Positions 25,634 to 50,087 of a stretch of 64,000 nucleotides of DNA are shown here, one piece after another. Made by a program: the position numbers and the translations under genes. This DNA is from Torpedo marmorata (taxonomy: Eukaryota). Position 1 is the stretch's first letter; every line of letters begins with the position of its first letter. The DNA is taken from assembly GCA_977017645.1 (NCBI GenBank), contig OZ360223.1, positions 74,214,001 through 74,278,000 on the forward strand, read 5' to 3'. The notes beneath the pieces are model-generated. The model did no database searches, had not been told where the DNA came from, and saw only the letters and a program-made list of their open reading frames with translations.

Positions 25634-25994
25634 GGAAGGGCTCAGAAGAATACGGAACTAATGCAGTCAAATGTGACTGGCCCAGATAGCTAACTTGGTC
25701 AGCATGAATGAGTTGGGTCAAAAGTCCTTTTCTGTGGTGTCTGACTCTATGCTGATTCTTCAATGAATGATCCAGCTTTTGTTGCATGCTTCGGATGTGT
25801 TTAGTGGATCTAAACTTATTGAAATGGTAGCTTAGATAAAATGTGGCAACACCTTTTACACAGAGGAATTCATTCTAATTGCTCTCTAATGCAACACTAA
25901 TTTGTGTGATGGAACCACATTGCTGTGCACTGGAGCAGTTGCCAGGGAATAGTAAATGTCGTGCACTTACATTTTCTTCAAATGAATTCACTTG

Positions 25995-28900
25995 TGATAC
26001 AAATTCAAACCAGCAACGACAGAAGACACAATGCAAAAGGGGTAATATTGAAATTTATATTTATTAAAGACAATTAAACATATAATTTCACAACAATTAA
26101 CCCCACTATAAACGTCTATAAACACTATTCTTATCTAAAAGGTGTGTGTGTGTGTAAAGCCCAGACCATTACAGTCTGTGCCCAACCCTCATGTAAAAAT
26201 GGAAAAACTTTCCCCAAAAACCCCAGGTCAGTCATAAAAACAAGTCAGTCCCAAAAATACAGTCCACAAAAATTCACTCTCTATGTTCAGGGTCCAAATT
26301 CAGCTCTGTGTGCTGGCAAGCAGCACTTCTTAATAAACGTTGGAGAGAGACAATGTCTGTTTATGCTTACGAATACTTGGCTTGCTTTTCTTCTCTGATG
26401 ACTTTCCCTTTTGGTGTTTTCACAAGGATTGCGAATTCAGATCCGTTTTGGATTAAGGCGTGTACTTGGATCTCACAGTCTGTTCTTCACAAAAGCTGCT
26501 CTCAACTCAGGATTTTGCTGAATCATCAAGAGGCCTTGTATTTCTCCCAGCCGTTTCCCCTGGGATACACAAGCCTGGATTTTTCTGATTCAAGAGACTC
26601 TGTGCTATTCTCCCAACTTCTTCTCTGGGATGCACAAGCCTGGATCCTGCTGAGTTCTTCCGCCTTTGCAACTCCAAAACTGCCACTGATTCAGTTTTCC
26701 ACGACTGAACTTCAGGCCTTTCTGTAGAGAGAGTTTTCTCCAGCTCCCTTTTTCAAAAGTTCCACACCCAAGTATATCTTTCCACAGTTTGTGTCCCCCT
26801 GGTGTCACTCTCCGGTAAATACAAGAAGTCCTGGGCAAGTTAACTCTTTCAGTACCAGGTACCAGTGTGTACTCCAAAAGACTTCATCCTTCCTGCTTAC
26901 CGTCCGCAGTCCAAATTTTAAGTCATGGTCCATAACACCTCCCACCCACAAAGAAAATTTTGGTCTGCAAAAACAAAATTTTGGAAATTGAGGTGTTACA
27001 ATATAAACAAAACCCACAATGTTCATCCACAAACACAAAATATGAACTATTTTCATTTATAAAGTTTAGCATCTAGAAAGACAATCAGCAATTACATTAT
27101 CTTTCACTTTCATATGTGTTATTACCAAATCATATTCTTGCAAAATTGGACTCCAATTCAACAACCGTCGATTCTTATTTTTCATTTTACAAAGAAAAAC
27201 CAATGGATTATGGTCAATATACACTATGAGTGTTTTTTGAGCTGTACAGATATAAACATCAAAGTGTTGTAGAGCCAACAACTCTTTTTCTATGGTTGAA
27301 TAATTCCTTTGATGATCATTGAACTTCTTCGAGAAGTAGGATACCGGATGGTCAATGTCCTCTTCGTTCTTCTTCTGTAACAGCACCGCACCCACAGCTT
27401 CATCGCTGGCATCCACGACTAAAGAAAACGGCTGTTCTAAATTAGGTGACTTAAGCACAGTTTGGTGGCATAACATAGCTTTCAATTTGACAAATGCTTC
27501 CTGACAACCTGTCGACCATACAAATTTTTCTCTCTTTCCAAGAAAATTTGTGAGAGGGAGCGCAATATCAGCAGTTTTTACAGAACTTGCGGTAGTAGCC
27601 AATCATTCCCAGGAACCTCCTCAGAGTTTTCTTACCAGTTGGAACAGGGAACTCGGAAATAGTCACAACCTTTGCCTCTACTGGTGCCAAATTCCCCTGG
27701 CCTACTACATAACCCAGAGAATTAACAGTCCCACGACCCTCTCTGAAACTGGTTTTATCTGTCTCCTCCTTACCCGTCAATAACCAGTACCTCTGGTAAA
27801 TGTTCAGTCTCTTTGTGCGGCACCTGTTCAAAATATGGCTTAATCATATTCACATGACAGACCTGTGTGTCTCGTCTGCGATTAGGTGTTTCTATGACAT
27901 AGGTGACATCATTAATTTTTGACTTAACTCTATAGGGTCCTGAAAATCTAGCCCTAAGAGGATTTGAATGGATGGGAAACATAACTAATACATTCTCACC
28001 AGGTTTAAAACTTCTCATCTTAGCCTTTCGATCATACCAAACCTTCATTCTCTGTTGAGTGGCCTTTAAATTCACCTTTGCCATCTCACAAGCCCGATGC
28101 AACCGATCCTTAAATTTGGAAACATAATCTAACAGATTTAAATGCACATCACTATTAATCCACTGTTCTTTTAATAATCTTAAAGGACCTCTCACCTCAT
28201 GTCCGAAAACTAACTCGAATGGACTAAAACCAAGTGATACTTGGACAGACTCCCTCGTTGCAAATAACAACAAATGAACCCCCTCATCCCAATCCTTTTC
28301 CTTCTCACAACAATAGATTCTAATCATGGTTTTCAAAGTCGAATGGAACCTCTCCAAGGCCCCTTGACTTTCTGGATGGTACGTAGAGGATACAATCTGT
28401 TTAACTTCCAGTCCATCAACCACTTGTTGGAAAACGCCTGACATGAAATTACTGCCCTGATCTGATTGAATTTCCCTTGGCAAACCTACCAAGGTGAAAA
28501 ACTTTATCATAGCCTTTACAATCGATTTTGCTTTAATGTTTCTCAGAGGAATGGCCTCTGGAAATCTGGTGGCTGCACACATAATTGTTAACAAATACTC
28601 ATTCCCCGCTTTGGTTTTGGGCAATGGGCCAACACAGTCCACAATCACTCTCGAGAAAGGCTCACTGAAAGCAGGGATAGGTTGCAAGGGTGCCACCGGG
28701 GGACCCTGATTAGGTTTACCCACCACCTGACAAGTGTGACAGGCCCGGCAAAAGCTTACAACCTCCCTTCTCAAACTGGGCCAATAAAATTGTTTTCTTA
28801 CCTTCCTTATAGTTTTCTTCACCCCAAGGTGACCACCTAAGTGTGTGCTATGAGCCAAAGTTATTATTGCATCCCTATATACTTTAGGGATCACAACCTG

Positions 28901-31900
28901 CTGCACGACTGCCCATTATTCATTGGCAGGAACATCACAATGTCTCCACTTTCTCATCAACACCCCATCTTTTTCATAATAACCCACTGGCACCTCTTTA
29001 ATCTCCTCTTCAGGGAGAATCTTATCCCTCACCTCAGCAAGATCAGGATTGTCCTTTTGCCTTGCTGTTAGCTCCTGTCGGGATAGTGACAAATCTGTGC
29101 CTTTTGGTGTCTTATCAGTGGATGGGTGTAACACAGAAGATTGCTCAACCTTTTCCAGGTGTTCTTGATTATCACTGACTTTTTCTTTCACCAAGTTATT
29201 TTCCACTGCCTTCTCTACAGTGACATTTTTCTTAGACATGGCCCTGGTTATGGCACATGCCGGATAAATATCAGAGTCTTTCTCTGACTTATCAATGACT
29301 GGCTTCGTGGTCATTCTCACTGCAGGAACTACTTTACCCTTGGCCAAGTCATTGCCTAGCAACAGTGAGACTCCTTCTACTGGCAACTCTGATCTCACTC
29401 CTATTATAACAGGTCCTTCCACCAAGTCTGAGTCCAACACTATTTTGTGCAAAGGAATGGACTCAACATCACCACCAATTCCTTTAATTAAATTCATGTC
29501 ACCGGTGTCAGTAGCTTCACAAAATTCCAAGACACTATCTAACACAAGTGACTGAGCAGCTCCAGTATCTCGCAAGATTTTCACTGGAACTTGTTTTGAT
29601 CCTGCCTTAACTGAAACAAAACCATCAGTCACAAAAGGTTTAAATATATCCCTAACTTTGTCAGTAAATTTATTTCCTTCCTGGGTGTTATGCCTCTTCT
29701 CACTCTGAATACAAGCATTAGGTGTTGCATCCTTTTCTCTCTTCTTTTTCAACACTGGACAGATTGCTAGCATATGACCAGCCTTCTTGCAGTCGTGGCA
29801 AATGGGACCCGAGTGGTTTTCCCTTATCCACTTTCTTTCATCCCTTTCCTTAACACCACTTCCAAATTTACTTTCCACTTGCTTGGGATTATCCACATTG
29901 ACCTTTTGGAATATTCTGCCTGACGTCCACTTAGGCTTGTGGGTTAAAGCATATTCATCTGCTAACTTAGCTGAATTTTGCCAAGTTTTCACCTCCTTTT
30001 CATCTAAGTATGCCTTAATATCCTCAGGAACACACCTTTTTATCTCCTCGATTATTATCAATTCTCTCAATTGATTGTAATCATTGTTTACTGCCTTAGA
30101 TGTGCACCACCGGTCAAAACACACAACCTTTTAATAGGCAATCTCTGTGTAAAATTGGGTTGCTGATCTTTTTAAATTTCTAAACTTTTGTCTATAAGCC
30201 TCTGGAACTAACTCATAAGCCTGGAGTATAGCCTTTTTCACCGTTTCATAATCAGCAGCTTGCTCCGTGGTAAGAGTAGAATAAGCTTGCTGAGCTTTTC
30301 CTTTTATTACACTTTGTAACATAAGAGACCATTGGTTTAGTGGCCATTTTAATTTCACAGCCACCTTCTCAAAATGCTGGAAGTACTTATCTATTTCTGC
30401 CTCCTCAAATGGAGGGACCAACCTAACTTCTTTACCAGCCAAAAACCCCTCAACAGGATGACAAATTTTATCTTTGTGCTCTTGTTTCCTCTCATTTTCC
30501 AACTTTATCTTTTCCAGCTCATTTATCCTATTTTTCTCCTTGTTCTCTAATTCTATTCTCTTTTGTTCCCTGGCTACCTCCAATTCTAATTTCCTTTGTT
30601 CCAATTCCATGTTCTTTCTTCGAATTCCCTGTCTAATTTCTTTTGTTCCAATTCCCTGTTCTTTTGTTCCAATTCCAATTTCTTTATTTCCAACTGTATG
30701 TTTTCAGAAGTTTTACCCTTGGGAAACTGCTCTAACACGCTCTCCTCAAACTTTTTTTCTTTTATATAGTATTTGACTATTTTTCTCCCAATCTCTGCCT
30801 TTTTCATAGATGGTTTTACAGAAGCAATGCCCAACTCTGTTGCTATAGCCACTAACTGTTCCTTTTTCGCCTTTTTTAAAAGTATCAGGTTCAGGTGATT
30901 CCAAAATATTTTCTACATCCATTGTTGCTGGTTTTTCGTTACACACACACTAGCTTTTTAATGATCTTTACAAAAGGAATGTCTTAAACCAGACTGGATT
31001 CCTTCAATTACCAAGATGTATTTTGATTCAAATCCAAGGACAAGCCCCCAATTTTGTTACAAATTCAAACCAGCAACGACAGAAGACGCAATGCAAAAGG
31101 GGTAAAATCGAAATTGATATTTATTAAATACAATTAAACATATAATTTCACAACAATTAACCCCACTATAAATGTCTATAAACACTATTCTTATCTAAAA
31201 GGTGTGTGTGTGTCTGTGTGTAAAGCCCAGACCATTACAGTCTGTGCCCAACCCTCATGTAAAAATGGAAAAACTTTTCCCAAAAACCCCAGGTCAGTCA
31301 TAAAAACAAGCCAGTCCCAAAAATACAGTCCACAAAAATTCACTCTCTATGTTCAGGGTCCAAATTCAGCTCTATGTGCTGGCAAGCAGCACTTCTTAAT
31401 GAACGTTGGAGAGAGACAATGACTCTTTATGCTTACGAATACTTGGCTTGCTTTTCTTCTCTGATGACTTTCGCTTCTGGTTTTTTCACAAGGATTGCGA
31501 ATTCAGATCCGTTTTGGATTAAGGCGTGTACTTGGATCTCACAGTCTGTTCTTCACAAAAGCTGCTCTCAACTCAGGATTTTGCTGAATCATCAAGAGGC
31601 CTTGTATTTCTCCCAGCCGTTTCCCCTGGGATACACAAGCCTGGATTTTTCTGATTCAAGAGACTCTGTGCTATTCTCCCAACTTCTTCTCTGGGATGCA
31701 CAAGCCTGGATCCTGCTGAGTTCTTCCGCCTTTGCAACTCCAAAACTGTCACTGATTCAGTTTTCCACGACTGAACTTTAGGCCTTCATGTAGAGAGAGT
31801 TTTCTCTTGCTCCGTTTTTCAAAAAGTTCTACACCCAAGTATATCTTTCCACAGTTTGTCTCCCCCTGGTGTCTCTCTCTGGTAAATACAAGAAGTCCTG

Positions 31901-32004
31901 GGCAAGTTAACTCTTTCAGTACCAGGTCCCAGTGTGTACTCCAAAAGACTTCATCCTTCCTGCTTACCGTCCGCAGTCCAAATTGTCAGTCATGGTCCAT
32001 AACA
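25995..32004 (-). mobile_element. Gypsy (Gmr1-like; integrase before RT) provirus with RT core deleted
   Basis: LTRs 25995-26937 and 31055-32004, TSD CTTG, PBS-Pro-like at 31032-31050, PPT gggtgggagg; gag CCHC (CHDCKKAGHMLAIC), PR LRDTGA, IN HHCC + DDE (27770-28906), RT end and RNase H (27066-27740). Confidence 0.95.
31032..31050 (-). promoter_or_regulatory. Primer-binding site, tRNA-Pro-like
   Basis: tgggggcttgtccttggat versus canonical TGGGGGCTCGTCCGGGAT, 4 nt inside the 5' LTR. Confidence 0.8.
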
Positions 32005-32523
32005 CTTGTCAGAAAAACAGATAAAACCAAATGATTAACAGTATTGTTCTGGCAATGCAGTGGACTTCAGTCAGTAATTACATCATCCGTGGCTAAATGC
32101 ACAGCACCAAGTTTTACCACCATATTAACTCTGGTTTTCATAAAGAAAATAGGGATGCTATGGATACATGTATGCCGTAAGGTATACAAGCGAAGACCTT
32201 GCTTATAAAGGTGGATTAAAAATTATGCTTTGGTTGTGTAACACCTTAGTCAGAGCCCACTAAGAATTCTGCATTTGGAGCACTTCGAGGAATAAACTGG
32301 ATGTGGAACTGATTTAACAGAATTGCAACTGGGTTTACAATGAAAAATAATGACAGTACTTTGCATTTAGTTGTCTCGTTGCTTGAATTAAGAACATTGC
32401 TGGATAATCTACTTGGGGTTTAAATGTTAAAAGACATCCGACAAACTATGAAAACTATTCCTTCTGATGGAGGGTCAAGTTAACAACGGTAATCTCAGAA
32501 CGAGAACCAGAATTTAAATTATA

Positions 32524-34520: not shown

Positions 34521-36306
34521 GTACATCAATAGAAGTCAGGGGCACCAATACCCTTGAGCGTATTGTTTGGGTGTTTATGAAGTATACCATGGAATGCAAT
34601 CTTGATATTATACTCATTTTAAATAAATAATTATTAAATGTTTGAAATGCAAGATTGATTGGCTAGATTTGTCTTGACCTATACCTGAGTGGGAGAACAG
34701 TTGGAAAGCGAAGCTGAGCCAAATATCAACTCAGCCATAGTTTGATTGTAGAATTCAGGATTTAATCAAAAATACACATTTTTAAAAAAATATGCGCAGT
34801 TCAAGCAATATCTCTGTGTTCTCAAATACATTTCGAATTGTGGTGGGACCCAAATTATCAGGATAGCAGGTGCACAAACTAACGTTAACTTAGATGTTAA
34901 AATGAGTCAGGACAAGTCAAAGAGCATGGAAAATCTGACAGACTTAACTGCATTTCTTTTAATGCAAGTCTGACAAGCAGAGGATGAACTCAAGGCATGA
35001 TTTGGTGGATGGAACTGGAATATTATAGTCAGAACAGAAAAGTGGCTGGGGATGGGGGCAGGACAACAGCTCAAGGTACCAGCGTACAGATGCTACAGGC
35101 AAGATAGTGGAGGAAGGAAGAAAGGTGGGAGTGCTGCAATTTTGATTCAGGGAGACATCACAGCAATACTGAGAGAGAATATTCTTGGGGATAATCCAGT
35201 GAAGCTATATGGGTGGAAAATAGTGTAGTGACTTCAATCCAACAAATATTCACTTGGAGGCTAGGTGAGATATCTGTTCTTGACGCGTTTCAATTGATTT
35301 ACTAACAAGTCCAATAGGTTCAAAAAATTTATTAACACACGATGACTTGTAGCAATCTTCAATAACTTAAATATCTTCTTTAACAAGATGTAAACAATCC
35401 TTGATAACGATGCTTAATAATGATTCTTAATAACGTCCTTTAAAACAATTCTTTATAACGTCTTTAATAACGGTCAATGAAAACTATGACAATCTCACTC
35501 ACCCTCTTCTAAGTCGCCATATTCTTATAATACTTCTTTCCTGAATAACGTGCATGCTCCACAGCGCATACTCCACCACGCATACTCCACCGCGCATACT
35601 CCAGCCACCTAACCCACTGCGCATGCGCCCGTCGTTACTCCCGCGCATGCGCAGAGTACTCAATAGGCCTAACACGGCCTACTAAACTCCACGACTCCTC
35701 CGACACCCACGGTATACATCGGAACATCACGATTAAGGTAAGACATGAGCCTTTGGCTCTTACACCGGCCCCTAATTATTATAATGAGACGCAATGTCTT
35801 AAATAATAATTACACAATCAATTACAAATAATAATAACCATATAACATTCAAGCAATATACAAATCTTCTTTCTTCTTTCTTCATAAGACCAGAGTTTAC
35901 CATCACTCTGAATCAACAAAAGTCTGTAACCTGTGTAGTGTACAAAAACAACAAAATACAGTCAGTTCGTACTTATCAAACTTCTTTTATCTTTAGAATC
36001 TTTGAGTTAGAACGTCGACCAGTAAACCTCAAATCTTCCTCAGACAAAATAGATAGTTTTTCTTTTGAATTTAACACGAGGTACTTCTTCAGCATGTCGT
36101 TTCTCATATGAAGAATTTAAACTCTTAGAACCAGAATTTGAATATTTATCTGATCCTCTCGATTTTAATAAACGAGTCTCTTTAACCTTTCCTGCATTCA
36201 AATCTTTCAATAAGAAAGTACTTCTCTCATTATCTTCCGATAAATTAATAACTTGACCTGAAGTGAAAATATCATGTGATACATTGGTACTTCTATTGTC
36301 AACCCT

Positions 36307-36577
36307 GCTGCGGTAAACTTGAAATTTTCAAATTTCTTCATCTTGCTTGTTACATTGCTGCAATGCAATATCACTTTCTTTCTGCATTGTTAGTAGCTAG
36401 GTCTTCAATTTACATTCTTGATTGTTTTCTATAGTCAGCTGTTTTGTGTTATTAACCAATAACTTGTTCTCTTTCAAAATATGAATCTCTTCCTCCAACC
36501 TTTAACATCTTGATAATGCTGAATCTCTTTCTTCAATAACTATTTATTTCTTCAATAACTTTGTCTGCTGTAACCTC
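36307..36577 (-). pseudogene. MIPOL1: MIPOL1-like coiled-coil fragment captured inside the BEL element
   Basis: VIEERDSALSRC*RLEEEIHILKENKLLVNNTKQLTIENNQECKLKT*LLTMQKESDIALQQCNKQDEEI*KFQVYRS; about half identical to recalled vertebrate MIPOL1. Confidence 0.75.
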
Positions 36578-36844
36578 TGAGCTACAAAATCTACTTTCAC
36601 ATTTGTTCTCAGTCATTTGCTTTATTCCTGCCTCAGATTCAATTACACAGGAATGATCACCAGTATTATTTGCAACATCTTCTAATACTTCATTTTCATC
36701 CATTTCTGATGAAAATAATTCCTTCAATGTTGTGTTAAATACCTTTGATTTATTTTCATATTGATCTATTTTGTTTTCTTCAAAAGTGAATTTCTTATTT
36801 ACAATCTTTTGCTGTTCCCTTAACTCATCAAATTTCACAACCAA

Positions 36845-39201
36845 AATTCTGTTAACATTTATCGCTAACTGCTCCTATGCAATATCATTATTTCTTTCCA
36901 ATGGTCCATTAATTGTCCAACCAAGCTTGGTTCTACTCCATATTACTTCTAGTGGTTCCAAAACCTTTGGTACATCTGAACCAATCAGCATTTCTATCTC
37001 AGAATTAACATCAGGTAAATAAACCTTCCACAGATAAAACAAATGAGAGATATCATTTTGATGCAAATGTTTCCTCCATGCACAAGCATAGTCTTCTGAG
37101 TATATAAACTTGGAAGATCACAACATTTTTCGTCATGCAATCCAGAAACCTCTAATCCTGAAACAATGCTGGTTTCAACGAGCTTTTCTTGTCCCATGGT
37201 TTTCAACATAATTCTTGACCTTCTTCCTTGAATATTAAGTTTGTTCATTAGTCCCACCATGCAAAAAGATGCAGTGCTGCCTGGGTTGAGAAATGCGTAT
37301 GTATGTACTGTTGCATTCCTGTTCTTGATCTTGTACAGGCACTATTGAAAGTTTGCAGTTATCCACACCAGCCCCAGTAAGACCACTTGTCTGAACCGAG
37401 GTTATAACATTGTTTTCTGATGTTTCCTTTGTTTCTATTTGCTCCTTTTCCAATTCCTTGTTTCTTTGATGGATATGCAAAATTATAGGATGCTTCAAAT
37501 TGCATATGTTACAGTTAATTCACTTCTCGCAGTTTTTACTGATGTGCCCTTTGCACAAACAGCTAAAACATATTCCATTTTCCTTTAAGAAAGCGATCTT
37601 CTCATTATGTTCCTTCTTTTCCAACTGTAAACACATTTCCAAAGCATGTCCACCTTTACAGAACAAACAACTCTTCTCATTAGTCAAACTTTCCTTTTCC
37701 TTATTTACTTTACCTTTTTCTTTATTTACACCTGACACATTAGTAGCAAAAGTACTCCTTTTCAATTTTGGACTAGGCTGTGAGTTAGACCTCCATACAT
37801 CTTTGTTCCCCATTGAATTGTCTCTGGTATTTCCATATATGGGATCTGTTTCAATGTACACCTGTCGTTGAAGAAAATCTACCAAATTCTTTAAGGTAGC
37901 TCGTTGATCGTAATTTTCTTGTAAATCACAAGCCAAATTTCTCCATCTATCCCACATCTTGTAAGGTAATTTATCTAAGATAATTCGCATATTAGCAAGC
38001 ACGTCAAGCTCACGAATATTATCAATATCTTCCATGGCATTACAACATCCTCTTAAAAAGAGAGTGTATGCTTGTAGAGCCTTTACATCATTCGATTTTA
38101 TTGATGTCTATTTAAGAGCTTTATCCATATTAGCTAAAGCAATTTGATGCTTGTTGCCAAAATGCTGTTCTAGTAAAAACTTAGCTCTTTCTAATCCTCT
38201 TTCCGTGGACATGTGTTTTGACAACTCTTTACAAGTTCTCTTGGATGTCCTTCTGTGAACATTTCCAAATAATAAAGAAATTCATCAGGGTCTTGCCATT
38301 TATTTTCAATATTGCTTCTAAAAGATCTCATGAACGCTTGGTACTGAAGTGGATTACCATCAAAAGTTTGAATCTCTTTCTTGGGCAAAGAAGAGAGAGA
38401 CTGTAACTGAATCAATGATGCAGCGATTTCATTTTGTCTTCCTATAGATGATAATACATTGCTCTGTTCACCGCCTCTTGTTACAAGTAATGATCTGGAA
38501 ACCTCACTGGTGTAGTTTCTCCCGTATTTCTGATGCTTGACTTGAATGCCAAAGAATCTGCATCGTTTGACTGAACCCACGTCGCCGCCTTGTCTTCGGA
38601 TGTTAGCACTGGTACGTGACTTGATAACACTATGCTCTTGAAGGCTTTGTCCTTGTATTTGCATGTCTTGTACCCGTGGTACTAAAATATCTACCTTTTT
38701 GGTTGATTTATTTTCCTGTGGCTCTTTTTTAAAATATAACTTCTTATCATCGCACACTTTAGATAATTTACTCCGAGCACCAGACACCATTGAGCCTTCT
38801 AATACCTTTATTTTGGCTCTGGCAATAGCAATGTTTGCTTCCAGCTCCTGCTGCTCCTTTCTCTGCCTTAGCTGCTTCTGTTCTTGCCTTAGCTGCTGCC
38901 TCAGCTGCTCCTCTTTTTGCCTTAGCTGCTGCCTCAGCTGCTCCTCCTTTTGCCTTAGCTGCTCCTCTTGTCCTTCTAAAATATGTTTATCCTTAAGCAA
39001 ATTTTGTTGCGCAAGAAGAGTGGCCAAGTCAACTTCAACCTTTATACGTGACGATGCAGAACTTGAAGTGTAAGAAACTCTGGAGCTCGAACCAGAAGAA
39101 CTTTGTTTGCTTCTCCTGCTTTCAACATTTGAGACACTGTCATATGCTTGTATTTCGTCCTGCAGGTCAGATGTTGTCTTCTTACTTACCTCTTTCTCCA
39201 A
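36845..39201 (-). pseudogene. BEL/Pao gag-protease, frameshifted
   Basis: ORF-track pieces 38191-39201, 37520-38035, 37235-37498, 36994-37260 and 36875-37066 carry BEL gag and aspartic protease motifs. Confidence 0.88.
38864..38970 (-). repeat. Coding tandem repeat (~33-bp unit) in gag
   Basis: Encodes QEEQLRQKEEQLRQQLRQKEEQLRQQLRQEQKQLRQ. Confidence 0.85.
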
Positions 39202-39529
39202 TTTGAATTGTACATCTTTTCACTTCATCCTCTTCGTTTTCTTCATCACCATTTGATGACACATTTTCAGCCATTTCCACATTGCTGTCTTCATGTTCAG
39301 TCATTGTCTTCTGCAATGAGTTTGCAATGTCTTCATACCCATCAACCGAACCCGCTGCCTCTTCTACCTTTGCCAGCTTCAGTCTTGCAAAGAGAATACT
39401 TTTATTTCCACTTGTATCTAGTTTATGTCGCTTCAATTTTTCTTTGAGATCCGCAACCTTCATGTCTTCAATACGATGTTCCTCAACAGCAACATCAGCG
39501 ACTGCTGCGTCAGCTGCTGCTGCGGCCAT
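39202..39529 (-). pseudogene. SAP-domain (SAFB/SLTM-like) N-terminal extension of gag
   Basis: MAAAAADAAVADVAVEEHRIEDMKVADLKEKLKRHKLDTSGNKSILFARLKLA followed by an acidic tract; ATG at 39529. Confidence 0.8.
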
Positions 39530-42500
39530 TTTACTCGTCTTGTTCCACCGTCCTTCGAGAATACACAACACTAGCCAAATCAACAGTCAATAATATCGCT
39601 GATTTTCAAGAAATGGTTTCTCCAACGTATTTATAGGACACTTTGCAATAAGATTAGAAGCTCTAAATCCCTCTCTGGCTGTTACTCATGGCAGATGGAT
39701 GTGAATTACAAACTGCCCCTAACTCGAGGCATTTCCAAAATGGCCGCCATTTTATTTTAAATATCAGTCCAAAGCACAGAGAGCTTATTCTATCTTCTTT
39801 CCTTCCATTTTCTGTTCCAAACAATAAGTTTTCATTGACTAAATTGTAGTGACTTCAATCGAACAAATAGTCACTTGGAGGCTAGGTGAGATATCTGTTC
39901 TTGACGCGTTTCAATTAATTTACTAACAAGTCCAATAGGTTCAAAAACTTTAACACACGATGACTTGTAGCAATCTTCAATAACTTAAATATCTTCTTTA
40001 ACGAAATGCAAACAATCCTTGATAATGATGCTTAATAACGATTCTAAATAATGTTCCTTTAAAACAATTCTTTATAACGTCTTTAATAACGGTCAATGAA
40101 AACTATGACGATCTCACTCACCCTCCTCTAGGTAGCCATATTCTTATAATACTTCTTCCCTGAATAACGCGCATGCTCCACCGCACATACTCCACCGCGC
40201 ATACTCTACCGCACATACTCCAGCCACCTAACCCACTGCGCATGCACCTGTCGACACTCCCGTGCATGCGCAGAGTACTCAATAGGCGTTGCACGGCCTA
40301 CTAAACTCTGCGACTCCTCTGACACCCGCAGTATACATCGGAACGCCGCAATTAAGGTAAGACACGAGCCTTTGGCTCTTACAAATAGAAATAAGAAGGG
40401 GTAAGTACTTTGAATAGTCAGCAGCAGTTAGAGGGGCAAATCTGTCGGGAGATTGCAGACAGCTGTGGGAATAACAATGTCATAACACTTGGTTACTTCA
40501 ACTTCCACCCCATCCAAAGGGCCTGGATGGGGTGGAATTCATCAAATGTGTCCAAACAATATGTCGACATAAAGAGGGTGCAACATTGGATCCTCTAAGG
40601 AAATATGGGAGGGCAAATGATGGAGATGCCATTTGGATAGCACTTTGGAACTAGTCACCAAAATTAATTGTAAAATAAATATGGAAAAAATAGGACTGGT
40701 CTGCAATTTCCAATCCTAAATTTGGGTGTCTAATTTGGATGCCATTAAACAGAAATGTGAAAAGATTAACTGAAATAGGCTGTTTTCAGTTAATGAGGCA
40801 TTTAGCCCATTAATTATACCCAATGACTTGGTCTCCAAATTCTTGTGGCAACAAATTCCACAGATTCACACTCATCACTGTTTGAAAGGGACTTCCTTTT
40901 ATTCTGAAGCTTGCCCTCTTGCTCTAGACTCTCCTACAACTGGAAACAACTTTTCCACGCCCACTCTATCTTGCTGTTTCAAAATTTGGAATGTTTCAGA
41001 GATTCCCCCTTATCCTTTTAAACTCCAATGAGTATAGGCCCTAGGATTTCCAAATCTGCTACTTCTTTGCCCATTCTCCCAGCCTATCCAAGTCCCTCTG
41101 GAGACTCCCTACTTCCTCAACACAACCCACTCCTTCACCTCTCTTCGTATCGTCCATAAACTTGGTCACAAAGCTGTCAAAGTGTGACAAGTTGCAGACC
41201 CAACACTGACGCCTGCTGAACACCACTAGTCACTGGCAGCCAGCCAGAAAAAGGCCTCCTTTATTCCCACTCTATTCCTGCTACCTGTCAGCCAATCTAC
41301 TATCCATGCTGGTACCTTGCCTGTAATAACACATAATTCTACCTTGTTTAGCAGACTCATGTGTGGCACCTTGTCAAAGCCTTTCTGAAAATCCAAGGAA
41401 ACAACATCCACTGACCCTCCTTTGTCCGTCCTCAAAGAACTCCAACAGATTTGTAAGCCAAGATCTCCCCTGAAGGAAACCTTGCTGACTTCAGCCAATT
41501 TTATCTTGTGCTTTCAAGTACTCTGAAACCTTTACCTTGAGAATTTTGCCAACCACTAAAGTGATGTAAACTGGTCTACAATTTCCTGGCTTTTGCCCTC
41601 TCCCTTCTTAAAGAGTTGAGTGACAAGAGTGGATTCATCATTTAGGCAATTGGAATCAAGCCAGTCCTTTAAGCAATGTAGAGGATGTAGGAGTCCACTT
41701 AAGAGGGATAATAAAGAGGTAAATGAGGAGGTATGAGATGGCTCTGGCAGATAAGATTAAGGAGAATCCTAATAGATTCTGAAGTATACTAAAGGTATAA
41801 GAGCAATTGGAGAAAGAATATAGCCCTCTAAAGATAATCAAAGTTGTTAATGTGTGGAGCCACAGAATGTGGGGAAGTCCTGAACATGTATTTCTCATGT
41901 GTATTTACTGTGGAAAAAGACATGGATATTCGGGAACCTGGGGAAGTATATTGCCATGTATTGAAGAGAGACCCTGTTACAGAAGAGGAGGTGCTTGAGG
42001 TCTTAAAACACACAAAGTTAGTAGATAAATGTCGGGGCCTGATCAAGCATATCCTCCGACATCATGGGATGCTCAAGAAGAAATTGCAAGAGCATTGGCA
42101 GAGATATTTTCATCATTATTAAACATGATTGAGACATCAGAAGACTGGAGGATGGCTAATGTTGTGCCATTATTTAAAAAATGCTGCTCAGACAAGCCAG
42201 GGGACTACTGGCCAGTGAGCTTAACGTCAGTTTTTGGTAAGTTACTGGAGGGGATTCTAAGAGACTGAAAGCCAAGGACTGGTTAGAGACAGTGCATGGG
42301 ACATCATGTCTCACAAATATGACTGAGTTTTTTTGAAGATGTGATGAAGAAGATTGATGAGCACAGGGTGTAAATGTTGTCTACGACTTTTGAAAGGCCT
42401 TTGACAAGATCCCCGCATGGTCAGCTAGTCCGGAAGGTCAGATCGCATGCATCCAGGGTGAGCTAGTCAATTAGATATAGTGTTAGTTTTATGGTGGGAG

Positions 42501-42749: not shown

Positions 42750-42920
42750 GCACGTTTGTACGTTCTCCCTGAGACTGCGTGGCTTTCCTCTGGGTGCTCC
42801 GGTTTCCTCCCACCCTCCAAAAACATACTGGGTTTGCAGGTTAATTGGTGTATGTGGGCAGCACGTGCACGTGTGCTTGAATGGCCTGAGTCTGTACTGT
42901 ATCTCTCAATTTAACTTAAT
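42750..42920 (+). mobile_element. V-SINE 3' part
   Basis: gtttgtacgttctccctgagactgcgtggctttcctctgggtgctccggtttcctcccac. Confidence 0.8.
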
Positions 42921-42924
42921 ATAA

Positions 42925-44054
42925 CTTTTTACTCTGGTTGAGTATCCTCTTCTCCCCAACCCTCGGACCTCGTCCCCTCTCTCTGGCTGCCCCCCCTGCC
43001 CTCCTCTCCCCCCTCTTGCCTCCCCCACCCCCCACCTCCCCCCTCCAACCTCCCCCACCCCCACCTCCCCCCTCTGGCCTCCCCCAACTCCCACCTTCCC
43101 CCCCTCTGACCTCCCCAACTCCCATCCCCCCGCAGGCACCCCCAACCCCCCTCCTCCTCCCTCCAACCTCCCCCACCTTTCATCTCCACCCTCGGACCTT
43201 CCCAACCCTCTCCCTCCCCCCCAACACCCTCCACAACACCGATCCCCACTCTAACCCCTGCTTGGTTTTTATTATCCCCTCTGACCTTCGCCTCTCTGAG
43301 ACGGAGCGCTCGGTCCTCAGTAGAGGCCTCACCTTCGTCCCCCTCCGCCAACACCTCAACGAGTTCCGTGCACACTGCAATGCCAAACTCTTCTTCCGTC
43401 ACCTTCGCCTCTGGGCTCACTTCCATGACCGTGACTCTCCACCCCGCACCCAAGACCCTTTCTTCCGCTTCAAGACTTCTTCCTCTTCCTGGACACCTCG
43501 TCCTGGCCAGCTGCCCGCTCTGGACCTTTTTATTTCCAACTGCCGCCGAGACATCAACCGTCTCAACTTCACCACCCCCTCTCGTATTCCAACCTCACCT
43601 CCTCAGAACACTCTGCCCTCCACTCTCTCCGCAACAATCTCAACCTCACCATCAAACCCGCAGACAAGGGCGGTGCAGTTGTGGTCTGGCGCACTGACCT
43701 CTACCTTGCCGAGGCCAGTCGACAGCTCTCAGACACCTCCTCCTACCGACCCCTCCCTTGGGACCCCACCACTACACATCAAGCCACTGTCTCCAACACC
43801 ATCTCCGACCTCATCAGCTTCAGTCACCTCCCCTCCACGGCCACCAACCTCATTCTCTCTCACTCCCGCACTGCCCATTTCTACCTTCTACCCAAGATAC
43901 ACAAACCCAACCATCCGGGCAGACCCATTGTTTCTGCCTGCTAAAAAAAGATACTTTGATGAAGGGCTCAAGCCCGAAAAGTCGGTTATGTATTTCTACC
44001 TTTGCTACATAAAAGACACTGCTGAGCTTCTCCAGCATTTGTGTTTTTTTACTT
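42925..44054 (+). mobile_element. Internally deleted Penelope element (C-rich leader, ORF N-terminus, RT start, pLTR)
   Basis: LSETERSVLSRGLTFVP, KPADKGGAVVVWRTDLY, FYLLPKIHKP..PGRPIVSAC, then directly the pLTR at 43943-44054. Confidence 0.9.
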
Positions 44055-47000
44055 ATCCCAGTTGTTCAGTGTGTTTATTGTCAATTTCATTGCCAAAGAT
44101 CCACTTCACAATCAATAGCAGCTCAAATCCTAGTAGAATCTGGTGAATTTGTGTGGAAGGATTGGAGGTCTATGGCAAGCTTCATCTCAGCACTAGACCA
44201 GAAAAATCATGCCTTATAAATAACCAGGACACCAAGGAATCTGTTAAATCACTGATTGTAATAAAATAATATTCACAGATACAAAATAGAGACACATAGT
44301 GGTAGAAAGCTGAAGACGTCAAACATGTTTTTTTCTTTTTGACAATGAATTCAAAGTGTGAAAGTTTAAAAATAGTTGACACTGAGATTGGGACCCAAGT
44401 CAATGTTCTCATTACTTTTCAAAGAAGGGTGATGATTTTTTTAGACTGTTATGAATTGTACAATTTGGAAAGCTTTCAATCTTGTGAGCCAACATGCTAT
44501 TAATTCCATTTCTCACAATATTATTTAAAATTTAATCGAAGAGCATGTCTTCAACTCTACTGGTTAGCTCATCAGACAGTTACCGTGGATTTGTGAAGCA
44601 TGGCCCAATACTGCAAAAACCATGACCAATTGCTGCTCAAACTAAATTTCCCTTTGAGTTTCTGTGCCCTTTGGTTGAATGATGACAGCATACTGTCAAA
44701 CCTGTTTAGCCTTTTTCCTGAGTGCTGACTGATCTTCAATTTTCTGCTTGATGCTTCACATCAATTTTGAATATTGAGATGACCTCTGGTTCAAATACCT
44801 TTGTTCATGAAGTTCCTGAAAAGATTAATACAATCATTCTCTTGTCACTCATACATTAGATTGAGGATTTCAGCATCAAACCTTGTGGATCTGTAATGGT
44901 TTAATTTTTATCACAAGGCATGCACTGCTGACCTTCACAGAAGTGTTAGGCTTTGAAGTCAATATGAATGATTTATATTTTCTGATATTTTCACCTTGGT
45001 TATTCTATAAGGATCCGAATGGGCATTTATACTGCTTCTCTGCACAAAATGTTCAATATCGAAAATGCTTTTAATGTTTGCTCTGTGCAAATATATATTT
45101 TTTCCAAAATATATTTATTGAGCATCAAAAACAACTTCATACACATTATGCAGATGTTCATTGTGCTCCTATTTTCTTTTTATTTTAAACAGAAAAACCA
45201 ACACACATATACACAAATGTTCACACACACCCTCAGATGCACGCCCAGATCCCCACCTCCTGACCACCTTGGCACCTTTGCTGACAGAATCATCAGTATA
45301 TCATCGATTGTACTGGTACAACCGTCTCACAGTTAGTCTTTTACTCTGTAAGTACTCATAATTCAGAGAAAAAACACATAAAAGGTTGCCGTTTGTGGAA
45401 AAATTTTCCGGTGGACCCTCTTAATGTGTATTTGATTTTCTCTAGTTTGATAAAGAAACTGATATCCTTAATCCATTGTGTAATAAAGAACCCCTATCAG
45501 ACTTCCAGTGTAATAAGATTAGACGTTTGGCTAATAGGGATGTAAATGCTATCGCGTCTTTCTGCAGGGAATTTAGGGAGTTGTCGAAGATTCTAAATAT
45601 TGCAGTCAAAGGGCAGGGTTGCAAATTGACTTTAAATATTTTGGATAGCGTGCTTATAGACTCCGCTCCAGAACCCTTGTATTTTGGGGCATTGATAAAA
45701 CATGTGACTTAGGTGGCAAGGGGAGCCATTACACTGATTGCTTTTGTCCTCTATTTCAGGATAAATGGCTGACAGTCTGGATTTTGAAAAGTGAACCCTG
45801 TGCAGCACCTTGAACTGAATGAGTCCCAAGCGAGCGCAGGAGGTGGTAGAACAAATTCTATCAATAGTCTCTTCCCACAGTTTCCCCTCAATTTCCATTT
45901 CTTGCTCCCATTCTGTCTTTATTTTGAAAAGTGAATGACTTAATCGACAGAATAGAGCTATAATTTTTTGAAATTGTCCCTCTCACTCCTGGATTAGCTG
46001 ATATTAAATCTTCCCAGGGTTGTTTGGCAGGTAAATGAGGGAAGTTTGGGAAAGCCTTTGAAATAAAATGTTAAATCTGCAAGTAACAAAATAAGTGTGA
46101 TGCAGGTAAACCATATGTGTGTGACAGAGAGGTGAAGCTGCTAAACACTCCTTCTGCATAAAGATCTTGAAGACATTGGATACCTTTAGTTTGCCATGTA
46201 TTACAAAAAGAATCAGACTGAAGGTGAAAATAAGTGATTGTTATTTAAGGGACCTGAACGGATGCCGCTGCCCACTTAAAGTGACGTCTAATCTGGTACC
46301 AAAGTATTACCGTATTGAGCACCACTGGGCTGTTGGTGTGGTTAGAGGGTTTTATGGGCAATGAAGAATACTGTATACCATGGTGGCTAAAGACGACGAT
46401 TTACAAGACGACTCTTCCAGTTTACACCAGGAAAGCTCAGGGGAATACACCCAGTAATTTAGCTTATGTAAATGCTGCCCAGTAGTAAAATTGGGAATTG
46501 GGAAGAGCGAGTCCTCCACGAACCAATTTGCAATAATGCCTTTTGGACCCTTGGAGATTTCCCCTTCCAAATAAAGGATGAAATTATTTTATCCAGCGAG
46601 GTGAAAAAATATGTTGGAAGAAATAAAGGAATGGTTTGAAACAAGAAAAGGAATCTTGGTAAAATATTCATTTTGACTACATTTATTCTGCCCATTAGTG
46701 ACAGGGGCAAATTGCTCCATCTCCGAAAATCTGATTTCACCTGGTCGATAAGAGAAGTAATTTTTTTTATTAGGAGATTGGAGAATGTGCGTGTGATGGT
46801 TACACCTAGGTACTTGAAACCTGATTAACGAAACTGAAAAGGCAGGTCTGATTGGTAAAGTTGCAGAGCTGCTGTGTTGATGGGGTAACATTCACTCTTT
46901 TGAAGATTCAATTTATAACCTGAAAAAGAGCCATACTCCTCCAGAATGGATAGAATGGAGGGAGTGCTTCTCTGTGGGTCTGTTACAAACAGCAGCAAGT

Positions 47001-47667
47001 CATCAGCATACAGTGAAACTCTCTTTTCAAGTCCATTTCGGACAATGCCTTTAAATGTAGGGGAAGACTGTAACATAATTTATAGTGGTTCGATTGCAAT
47101 GGAAAAATAAGAGGAGATAGGGGACACCCTTGTCGGGTACCGCGTTCCAAAGCAAAATAGAGTGAGTATTGTTTGTGTGAACCGATGCTTGTGGTGCAGT
47201 GTATAGAAAGTGAATCCAGGAGATAAACTTGTTACCAAATCCAAATTTCTTTAATACTGCAAAATGATACTACCACTCTACCCTATCAAAGGCTTTTTCA
47301 GCATCTAGCGAAATTACAACTTCCGGAGACTTTGTCGAGTGTTTAGAGTAAATGATGTTGAAGAGTGTACGAATGTTAAACGACAAGTGACACTGTTTTA
47401 TTAAACCATTCTGCACTTCAGATATGATCTTTGGTAACACTCCTTCTAGTCGAGATACTATGACCTTGGCTAACACTGACATCAGTATTAAGCTGAGATA
47501 ACGGCCTATAGGAGCCACATGACATGGGATCTTTCTTCAGGAGGAAATTTATTGATGCTCTGGTTAAGGTAGTTGGTAAAATTCCTCGCTCCAGTGCTTC
47601 AGTCAACACTGATAATAATAGTGGGACTAGTTTATCATTAAACTTTTTATAAAACTCCATTAGAAAT

Positions 47668-48001
47668 ATTTAAATATGTTGCCCTGCATCCCAGGCCCCG
47701 CTGACTCTCCTAAGTTTAAATTTGAAGAATGAACATTGCTGAATCTCTTACATCGAGCCATGGATGTGTATAGATATATTTTCAATTGTGCTTTTCCATT
47801 CTCTTTTCCTTTTTAGTTCTAGTATGGGGAGGGGGTAAGGGATGGGAAGGGTGGAGGGTGGGTTGTTTTAGTAAGGGTGGGTTTAGATGGGGTTAGATTC
47901 ATGGTAATACGAAACTACTATGTTTTGAACTTAACTGATGTGTAATGTACATTTTACATTATTTTGTATTATTGTGAAAAAATTGAAAACCTTAAAATAA
48001 A

Positions 48002-48040
<39 letters not shown>

Positions 48041-48041
48041 A
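47668..48041 (+). mobile_element. Short L1 3' tail with long poly(A), inserted antisense into the L1 RT region
   Basis: AATAAA followed by ~32 A; TSD agaaat at 47662-47667 and 48042-48047; host frame rejoins as ..RFLMEFYKK. Confidence 0.85.
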
Positions 48042-48615
48042 AGAAATCTGTTGGAGTCTGGAGACTGCATTGCTTTAATTGACAGTGTAATCTCATCCAA
48101 AGTGAGTGAGACATCCAGTTCCTTAACCTGGTTAGGGTTAATGATCAGAGTAGTAAAATGGTTAAGAAACTGGTTCATTTTGGTGTCATCAGAAGCTTAT
48201 TCGGATTTGTAGAGTGACGAGCAGAAAGATTTAAAGGCAGCATTGATTTCCATGGGATCAGATGTTATGTTATTGAGGGGTCTCTAATTTGGGGTATCAG
48301 CCTTGATGCAGCCTGATGTTTCAGTTGGTGGGCCAATAGGCGGCTTGCCTTTTCCCCATGTTCGTAATGTGAACCATGAGTTTGCATTAATAACCGCCCC
48401 GCCTGTGAGGTTGATACAAGATCAAATTCCACTTGTAAATCAAGATGTTACTTGTATAATTCTGGGGATGGACAAACTGCGTAGCATTGATCCATTTCAC
48501 TAATAGCGGATGTTAGTTCATTGATCCCAGCAGTGCATTTCTTATTTAATGATACTGAGTATGAAATTATTTGACCCCTCATATAATACTTAAGTGACTT
48601 CCAAAGTAGGGAATA

Positions 48616-50087
48616 GGAGGTCTTCACAGACATCTTCAACACCTCACTGCAGCAGTCCATTGTTCCCGCAGAGTTCAAGACAGCCACCATTATCCCAATA
48701 CCAAAGAGGGCGACAATAACAGGCCTCAATTACTATCGCCCTGTGACACTGACCTCCTCCATTATGAAATGCTTCGATCGTCTGGTGATGGAACACATCA
48801 AAGCACACCTCCCAGAGATGCTGGACCCATTTCAATTCACCTATAGAAGAAACCGTTCCACAGACGATGCTATAGCCTTGTTGCTTCACTCCGTCCTGGC
48901 CTACCTGGAGAACAATGCCTCACACGCCAGGCTGCTGTTCATTAACTTCAGCTCGGCATTTAATACGATCATTCCCCAGAGGCTAGTGGAGAAGCTGCCC
49001 TCGCTGGGAATCAACACCCCTCTCTGTAACTGGATTTTGGACTTCCTAGTGGAAAGACCGCAGTCTGTCCGAGTCGGTAACAGAACGTCAAGCCCCGTCA
49101 CGCTGAGCACTGACGCACCTCAGGGTTGTGTGCTCAGCCCGCTCCTGTTCACGTTACTGACCCACGACTACATCACCAGATCCAGCTCCAACAGTGTCAT
49201 CAAGTTTGCAGATGACACAACAGTAGTTGACCTCATCAGCAACAATGATGAGTCGCATTACGGAAAAGAGGTGGAAAATCGCGTGAAATGGTGCGAGAGT
49301 AACAAACTGAGTCTCAACGTGGACAAGGCAAAGGAGATGATCGTGAACTTCAGGAAGACCAGGAATGACCACCCTCCACTACACATCAACAGCTCTGTAG
49401 TAGAGAGAGTGGAGAGAACCAAGTTCCTTGGAGTTCACTTAACTAGTGACCTATCGTGGGCACACAATATCTCCTCACTTGTCAGGATGGAGCAACAGTG
49501 ACTACACTTCCTGAGAAGACTGAAGCGGGCAAGAACCAGCTATGTCAACCTTCTATGGGAGCTCTAACGAGAACGTCCTGGCCGGCTGCATCACAGTGTG
49601 GTACGGTTGCTGCAGAGAAATGGATCGAAGATCAATCCACAGGACCATAAGAGTAGCATAGAGGATCATGAGAGTCTCCTTTCCCCCATCGACGTGATCT
49701 ACTGGGATCGTTGTCTGAAGAGGGTGCGCAAAATAATTGAAGACTCCTTCCACCCTGCACACAGAATCTTTCAGCTGCTCCCATTGGAAGAGATACAGGA
49801 ATATCAGAGTCAGCACCACCAGGCTGAGGAACAGCTTCTTCCCACGGGCAGTGAGAACACTGAACAACCAAAGGAACTGTTTACACTAACAATCCGAGGC
49901 TCTCATATGTACAAAACAATATTTATTTGTAAAGATTAAATACTTGACCTGCATATGTATTGTTTGTATATATGTGTGTTATGTCTGATTGTGTGTCTGC
50001 ATGTTTTGCACTGAGGACCGGAGGACGCTGTTTCAGTGGGTTGTACTTGTCCAATCAGATGTCAATAAACTTGACTTGACTTTACTT
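48616..50087 (+). mobile_element. Rex1/Babar-type LINE inserted in the L1
   Basis: [26 protein letters not shown]; tail caataaacttgacttgac; ggaggt at both junctions. Confidence 0.9.

Follow-up and report, generated by a model that had tools for sequence, protein, structure and literature searches.

A spliced SLTM segment with a SAP domain at the start of Gag in a BEL/Pao retrotransposon family of Torpedo marmorata

The best explanation for the SAP domain at Gag's N terminus in a BEL/Pao retrotransposon of Torpedo marmorata is that gag acquired, in frame at its start, the 5' end of a spliced SLTM mRNA of the host and that the retained domain is likely a DNA-binding module holding Gag complexes on DNA (probability of roughly 0.55). 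The family displays an SLTM-derived segment that has lost its intron and is fused in frame to Gag, relatives that encode reverse transcriptase (RT), RNase H and integrase, and a SAP pattern in two diverged branches. The copy considered here lies in the window, the whole 64,000-nucleotide (nt) stretch analyzed (GenBank assembly GCA_977017645.1, contig OZ360223.1, positions 74,214,001 to 74,278,000), and has the following features.

35224-40383, minus strand: LTR element of 5,160 bp, classed as non-autonomous BEL/Pao, delimited by its LTR pair and 5-bp target duplication
40384..40388, repeated at 35219-35223, minus strand: 5-bp target-site duplication, read at the element ends
39845..40383, minus strand: 5' LTR of 539 bp with TG...CA ends, from the element ends and LTR comparison
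39355..39559, minus strand: SLTM-derived segment, comprising the end of the 5' UTR, the ATG at 39529, the coding part of exon 1, and the first codons of exon 2
39374/39373, minus strand: SLTM exon 1/exon 2 junction, from alignment to spliced host SLTM
39371..39472, minus strand: SAP domain (Pfam PF02037, 38.5-40.6 bits)
39220..39354, minus strand: acidic linker, with the frame break of the window copy near its downstream end
38191..39219, minus strand: Gag, with a Ser-rich stretch, a coiled-coil repeat and the start of DUF1759 (capsid-type), from the ORF translation
37235..38107, minus strand: remaining Gag in two ORF pieces, with three Cys/His knuckles read from the translation
36875..37341, minus strand: protease region, broken in the window copy (Pfam DUF1758 in siblings L044 and L102)
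36555..36830, minus strand: A-rich coding cargo at the expected RT start, limits approximate, not in autonomous-type relatives
36192..36554, minus strand: MIPOL1 exons in permuted order, late E-F-G then early A, with a back-splice-type junction at 36308/36307
35998..36189, minus strand: Elongin A remnants of two exons (36085-36189 and 35998-36053), 83% and 91% identical to host exons (G000:C41)
35224..35764, minus strand: 3' LTR of 541 bp, from LTR comparison

The 5' and 3' LTRs of the window element are 91.9% identical over 542 nt, and its coding region past the linker is split into several ORF pieces. Neither Pfam nor comparison with relatives revealed RT, Pao RNase H (Peptidase_A17), integrase, or DUF5641 in this element, and because these are missing there, we class the copy as a non-autonomous derivative of BEL/Pao, the BEL/Pao assignment being made from Pfam domains. 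DUF1759 was scored in sibling copies but not in the broken window copy. Elsewhere in the window, a third LTR of the same family (261-843) is 81-92% identical in aligned blocks. Two direct repeats separated by about 5,066 bp (~25989-32024; 91-97% identical) possibly mark another LTR element, and a coiled-coil-type tandem repeat near 30579-30709, within this repeat region, resembles the element's own. Degenerate non-LTR retroelement ORFs, judged by the look of their translations, occupy 42920-44146 and 45400-49500.

The SAP motif, which the initial annotation had recognized at 39371-39472, lies within a 115-codon minus-strand ORF that starts at the ATG at 39529, and it is confirmed by Pfam (PF02037; 38.5 bits, E = 8.2e-10, cutoff 23.9), matching model positions 2-33 of 37. 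As had also been observed, the frame is broken in the window copy between the SAP ORF and the gag ORF at 38191-39219. Among 45 other loci, taken as the top matches of the SAP query, SAP and the next Gag segment are both present in 43 and share a frame in 41 of these 43, and natural single ORFs of sibling copies hold SAP together with the Gag domain DUF1759 (Pfam). The fusion of SAP to Gag is the family state. Two findings that would speak against capture, i.e., a SAP domain native to BEL/Gypsy gag and other copies out of frame, were both looked for, and the idea of capture came through each. The 102-aa N terminus had no match in a search against longer proteins, and a PDB sequence search returned generic SAP domains only (best, MKL1, E = 0.0023).

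Host SLTM was found on C68, and two SAFB genes were found on C54; the latter (G000:C54:17.10-17.16 Mb and 18.17-18.21 Mb) share a strand and are separated by about 1 Mb. All 71 protein matches of the N-terminal 115 residues, from a search that scored 8,000 candidates of 331-1,054 aa, are SLTM-type SAP proteins, of which 68 are named SLTM. In host-like copies, the match to SLTM begins 38 nt before the ATG, covers exon 1, and runs straight into exon 2 (89% identity over ~207 nt), such that the 1.2-kb SLTM intron is missing and the junction falls at the exact splice site. The window copy has 67% nucleotide identity to spliced host SLTM over 207 nt. When graded by identity to host SLTM, 73 distinct copies form a series, with 24 at 90-96%, 5 at 84-88%, 1 at 79%, and 43 at 72-77%.

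The SAP DNA of window-type copies is 73% identical to host SLTM, whereas identity to the host's two SAFB genes is 54% and 64%, and its synonymous distance is 0.80 to SLTM versus 3.2 and saturated to the SAFB genes. A tree built from 99 nt of 20 copies and three host genes groups all 20 element copies with SLTM, apart from SAFB (100/99), and a clade of window-type copies plus SAFB is rejected (p-AU = 0.034). A Ser-Gly-Asn-Lys motif, with Val in SLTM, does occur both in window-type copies and in the two SAFB genes of the host, and the copy series places the SAFB-like residues late within the element lineage. Because the copy series, identities, tree and AU test all point to SLTM, we read the SAFB-like look of the window motif as convergent, and an SLTM origin of the N-terminal SAP segment is close to certain. 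A SAFB1 or SAFB2 donor is largely refuted by DNA identity, the tree and the AU test; the earlier proposal of a SAFB-like SAP fused to Gag was right in that a SAP domain of the host SAFB family was captured and wrong as to the donor, which is SLTM rather than SAFB or SAFB2. Nor does the likeness once drawn between the later DGYEDIANSL stretch and SAFB hold, as this stretch is unmatched at the nucleotide level in the host SLTM and SAFB regions fetched (window element and seven other copies). Nucleotide searches found no match for the linker in the host SLTM or SAFB regions fetched, and none for the SLTM RRM and ER-rich region in the eight element sequences compared.

In the 6.2-Gb genome, 33,530 first-look candidates yielded 150 scored matches (79-100% identity), neither figure being a copy number. 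Contigs from four runs, coded as four other organisms, covered all 30 bins of the element. Host-like copies of ~7-8 kb contain RVT_1, Peptidase_A17, integrase, and DUF5641 in that order, and the full enzyme set is present in SLTM-bearing relatives L099, L108, L112, and L113 (Pfam). Because host-like copies carry RT, RNase H and integrase, we consider the SLTM capture to be common to an autonomous-type BEL/Pao lineage and the window subfamily.

A sister BEL family has a Gag that is ~50% identical, a different N terminus without SAP, and both RT and integrase. Of 30 Gag loci, 14 belong to the sister family, 9 have an SLTM match, and 7 fall below the threshold used; of the last, one has a diverged SAP, and in the other six, similarity to the references does not extend upstream of Gag. 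A pre-capture ancestor was not found among these 30 loci. In the look for microsimilarity at the switch points, the sister family aligned only from Gag onward. In sister copies L190, L192, L203, and others, the N terminus is ~80 aa long, is unmatched in Pfam, and may represent a further captured piece of the host. One copy, L204, has its SAP deleted. In a small sample of insertion sites, in which a few "LTR pairs" are probably other repeats, the flanks of 15 SAP-bearing copies had a G+C content of 0.405, and those of 7 copies without SAP had one of 0.454 (P = 0.42).

Between window-type and host-like copies, net dN/dS is 0.32 for SAP (38 codons; 42 window-type and 24 host-like copies), 0.98 for the linker, 0.62 for the capsid, and 0.28 for the knuckles (9-20 copies per group for these three regions), with dN biased downward because copies were picked by protein similarity. 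The dS of SAP is 0.59, about twice that of other Gag regions (0.22-0.34), probably due to CpG loss (6 sites to 2.2), and once a Gag-wide dS is used, the SAP ratio is near 0.6, like that of the capsid. In neutral simulations on the host exon to equal nucleotide distance, a stop was gained in 50-61% of trials, and, with each of the two rate settings, 0 of 1,000 stop-free simulated products attained 90% of the score of the host. The local SAP HMM was built from proteins retrieved with the window SAP and favors the window type (55.9 bits versus 45.1 for the host); Pfam SAP scores, which are independent of this profile (45.3 bits for the host, 40.6 for the window copy, and 43.4, 39.1, and 31.4 for three siblings), agree in direction with the simulation. 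A second diverged branch, found through Gag and not through SAP, retains a SAP-like pattern in seven copies (19.6-46.4 bits with the local HMM, two of them weak). The projected SAP segments of the copy series contain no family-level indels, and about 11 of 34 SAP residues differ from host SLTM in the window type. Taken from these comparisons, selective constraint on SAP is very probable; it is likely but moderate, because the 38 codons, high SAP dS, biased choice of copies and biased profile temper both the ratio and the simulation.

The window subfamily carries pieces of host RNA where its relatives carry pol; the initial annotation captured the SAP-Gag fusion and missed that the element is non-autonomous, with further captured mRNAs. 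The A-rich cargo at 36555-36830 has no Pfam or PDB match and no counterpart in autonomous-type relatives, and some copies have this cargo, upstream of MIPOL1 (window 36555-36830; L107:5230-5800), in the reading frame of the protease. The coiled-coil part of the cargo is MIPOL1, whose best protein match is from Narcine; most host MIPOL1 exons are 86-96% identical to the Narcine protein. In the least diverged copies, the exons, which we letter as found, run from mid-E through F and G and continue with A, B and the first part of C, at 92-97% identity to host exons. In host MIPOL1, exon A lies ~206 kb upstream of exon G, and in the element the exact donor of G is joined to an acceptor of A with the reading frame kept. 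This junction is spanned by 18 of 18 sequences with a match (41 examined, the window included). The middle exons match one locus only; within 400 kb of host MIPOL1, matches are confined to exons E, F, G, A and B and the beginning of exon C, with no second exon set. The piece extends from inside exon E to early exon C, which is under one turn of an A-to-G circle.

Because a late-exon donor is joined exactly to an early-exon acceptor, the simplest explanation is a circular RNA template, from which the MIPOL1 piece was likely copied. Other conceivable sources of the same order are a pair of template switches on linear mRNA, trans-splicing, and tandem duplication within the host gene. The junction overlap of 2-3 bases is in keeping with template switches, which are described in parts of PMC5131818 as using short similarity, and other routes to non-colinear junctions have been noted (PMC4897178), but the exact splice sites, the intact frame, the span of less than one turn, and the single set of exons at one locus make these routes unlikely. 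At least three MIPOL1-carrying copies sit inside introns of host MIPOL1 (G000:C40:64.40-64.50 Mb), and the tails of L032-L047 contain two different deletions within the MIPOL1 cargo of window-type copies, with the window copy and L035 keeping the downstream frame.

Downstream of MIPOL1, fuller copies match four spliced host exons of Elongin A (C41) at 89-97%. The piece with the Pfam Elongin_A region (L101:3748-4320 and similar) has 136 genome matches, mostly element copies, and the host Elongin A genes lie at C41:39.0 Mb (the parent) and C25:175.3 Mb (a paralog). Introns are lost at exact splice sites in the SLTM exon 1/2, MIPOL1, and Elongin A pieces alike. A further SLTM-bearing subfamily, of which at least 40 copies are 94-100% identical, carries isoleucyl-tRNA synthetase; in L104:3167-4794 (G000:C11, minus strand), the cytoplasmic enzyme is fused in frame after Pao RNase H, with integrase replaced.

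By the mechanism that we favor, a co-packaged SLTM mRNA would have been joined to the element by a template switch during reverse transcription, as inferred from LTR-mediated retroposition (described in parts of PMC5131818). The capture would have given Gag a new start codon and a new N terminus, after which selection would have kept the SAP fold while its surface residues drifted from SLTM. The SAP would hold Gag-containing complexes on DNA, putatively host chromatin or the element's own cDNA. In a later derivative, pol would have been replaced, in the same reading frame, by host RNA pieces (the A-rich piece, MIPOL1 circular RNA, and Elongin A mRNA), and this derivative would spread with the enzymes of autonomous relatives. 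The SLTM SAP is called DNA binding in portions of PMC10901741; by analogy with the DNA binding described for SAFB-family SAP domains, together with the constraint, we put a DNA-tether role for the Gag SAP at about even odds.

Alternatively, SLTM may have been captured as a passenger that supplied a 5' UTR, a start codon, and a soluble folded N terminus, with SAP kept since unfolding would harm Gag. The family often captures host RNA (MIPOL1, Elongin A, isoleucyl-tRNA synthetase), its MIPOL1 cargo is near neutral (net dN/dS = 0.82), and about a third of the SAP residues have changed. Moreover, SAP is unnecessary for transposition, because the abundant sister family without it has RT and integrase. 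Set against this, the linker drifts freely and SAP does not, the SAP segments are free of family-level indels, and the SAP pattern is kept in two diverged branches, all of which makes a mere passenger somewhat unlikely.

A distinctly less likely reading, and one weaker than a tether, is that the Gag-borne SAP acts as a decoy that competes with SLTM and SAFB for chromatin sites or partners, thereby derepressing element RNA. SAFB1, SAFB2, and SLTM bind and restrain L1 RNA, and their depletion in mouse cells raises LTR/ERV transcripts (from portions of PMC10901741); the donor is one of these repressors. The repression is, however, described as acting via RNA binding, and the RRM and ER-rich region of SLTM went unmatched in the eight element sequences; in addition, the most numerous matches are about one-third of SAP residues away from SLTM, a drift that a mimic would be expected to avoid. 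It is largely refuted and highly improbable that SAFB was the source of the window-type SAP, that SAFB mRNA converted it, or that it is native to transposons and resembles SLTM: the shared Ser-Gly-Asn-Lys motif, an Atlas lead (a "SAFB family" cluster at 0.89), and the SAP domains known in Zisupton and some Penelope-like elements (parts of PMC8557442) are outweighed by the synonymous distances, the AU test, a 5' UTR that is SLTM's, the intermediate copies linking host-like to window type, and the lack of any Gag domain among the families listed for 88 representative-protein matches, which are mostly multi-SAP proteins. SAP-Gag proteins may nevertheless exist elsewhere; such elements are seldom annotated as proteins.

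With capture and tethering as the preferred reading, a tentative broader view, held at somewhat less than even odds, is that a vertebrate retrotransposon took the DNA-binding domain of SLTM, one of its own repressors, and adapted it step by step to tether Gag to chromatin or cDNA, and that this lineage, together with a derivative spreading a host circular RNA copied in frame, helped expand the 6.2-Gb ray genome. If true, the copy series would document reverse domestication, from host to transposon, in readable form, and the MIPOL1 piece would be direct fossil evidence of LTR particles packaging and copying circular RNA. In most captures that have been traced, sequence passed from transposon to host, or host fragments ended up as dead cargo. 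Here a host chromatin-binding domain, from a family that represses retroelement RNA, entered Gag in frame and under probable constraint. Since intermediates survive, the change of function is testable on natural sequences. The permuted MIPOL1 piece, with its back-splice-type junction situated within an LTR element, bears on how circular RNAs are retrotransposed, a point left open in PMC4897178. In annotation of this genome, element copies will yield many false matches to SLTM, MIPOL1, Elongin A, and IARS1.

The capture of mRNA by LTR elements, circular RNA-derived pseudogenes, and SAP domains in transposons are already known. Among titles and abstract beginnings, with few subscription journals covered, the literature on SAP with Gag or BEL yielded no description of a host SAP retained on Gag, and that on gene capture by LTR elements or circular RNA within them, MIPOL1 circles, and electric-ray repeats (titles and abstract beginnings) yielded no paper describing the element family, which may already be annotated in repeat collections. 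The presence of an N-terminal PHD finger in some BEL Gags was not confirmed in the literature checked and was not used.

With BEL/Pao (Belpaoviridae), the family shares TG...CA LTRs, a 5-bp target duplication, a DUF1759 Gag, three Cys/His knuckles, and a DUF1758 protease, and its relatives share RVT_1, Peptidase_A17, integrase, and DUF5641 in order; unlike BEL/Pao, it has the SAP of host SLTM at the start of Gag and a window subfamily with host cargo and without RT, RNase H and integrase. As described in parts of PMC5131818, LTR-mediated retroposition replaces internal ORFs with partial spliced mRNAs, can join several genes, and produces chimeras that can re-transpose; Pao elements are named there among the LTR elements that capture mRNA, and Bs1 of maize is also cited. 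Unlike those cases, the capture reported here sits in the gag of full-enzyme relatives, appears constrained, and occurs in several subfamilies and very many copies.

SAP is an accessory, putatively DNA-binding module in Zisupton and in Chlamys Penelope-like elements (parts of PMC8557442). These are likewise mobile elements with SAP, but they are DNA transposons or non-LTR elements, and here the donor gene, exons and intermediate steps are traceable. From the host proteins SLTM, SAFB1, and SAFB2, the element differs in that no RRM or ER-rich region was found and the window type has about one-third of its SAP residues altered, although its SAP exon and Ala-rich start derive from SLTM. Circular RNA-derived pseudogenes have non-colinear junctions at splice sites, and LTR sequence flanks a set of 33 circRFWD2 copies in the mouse (PMC4897178). 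The MIPOL1 exon-exon junction of the element is likewise non-colinear at splice sites but, unlike those pseudogenes, lies in frame in a polyprotein ORF between two LTRs and is copied with the family.
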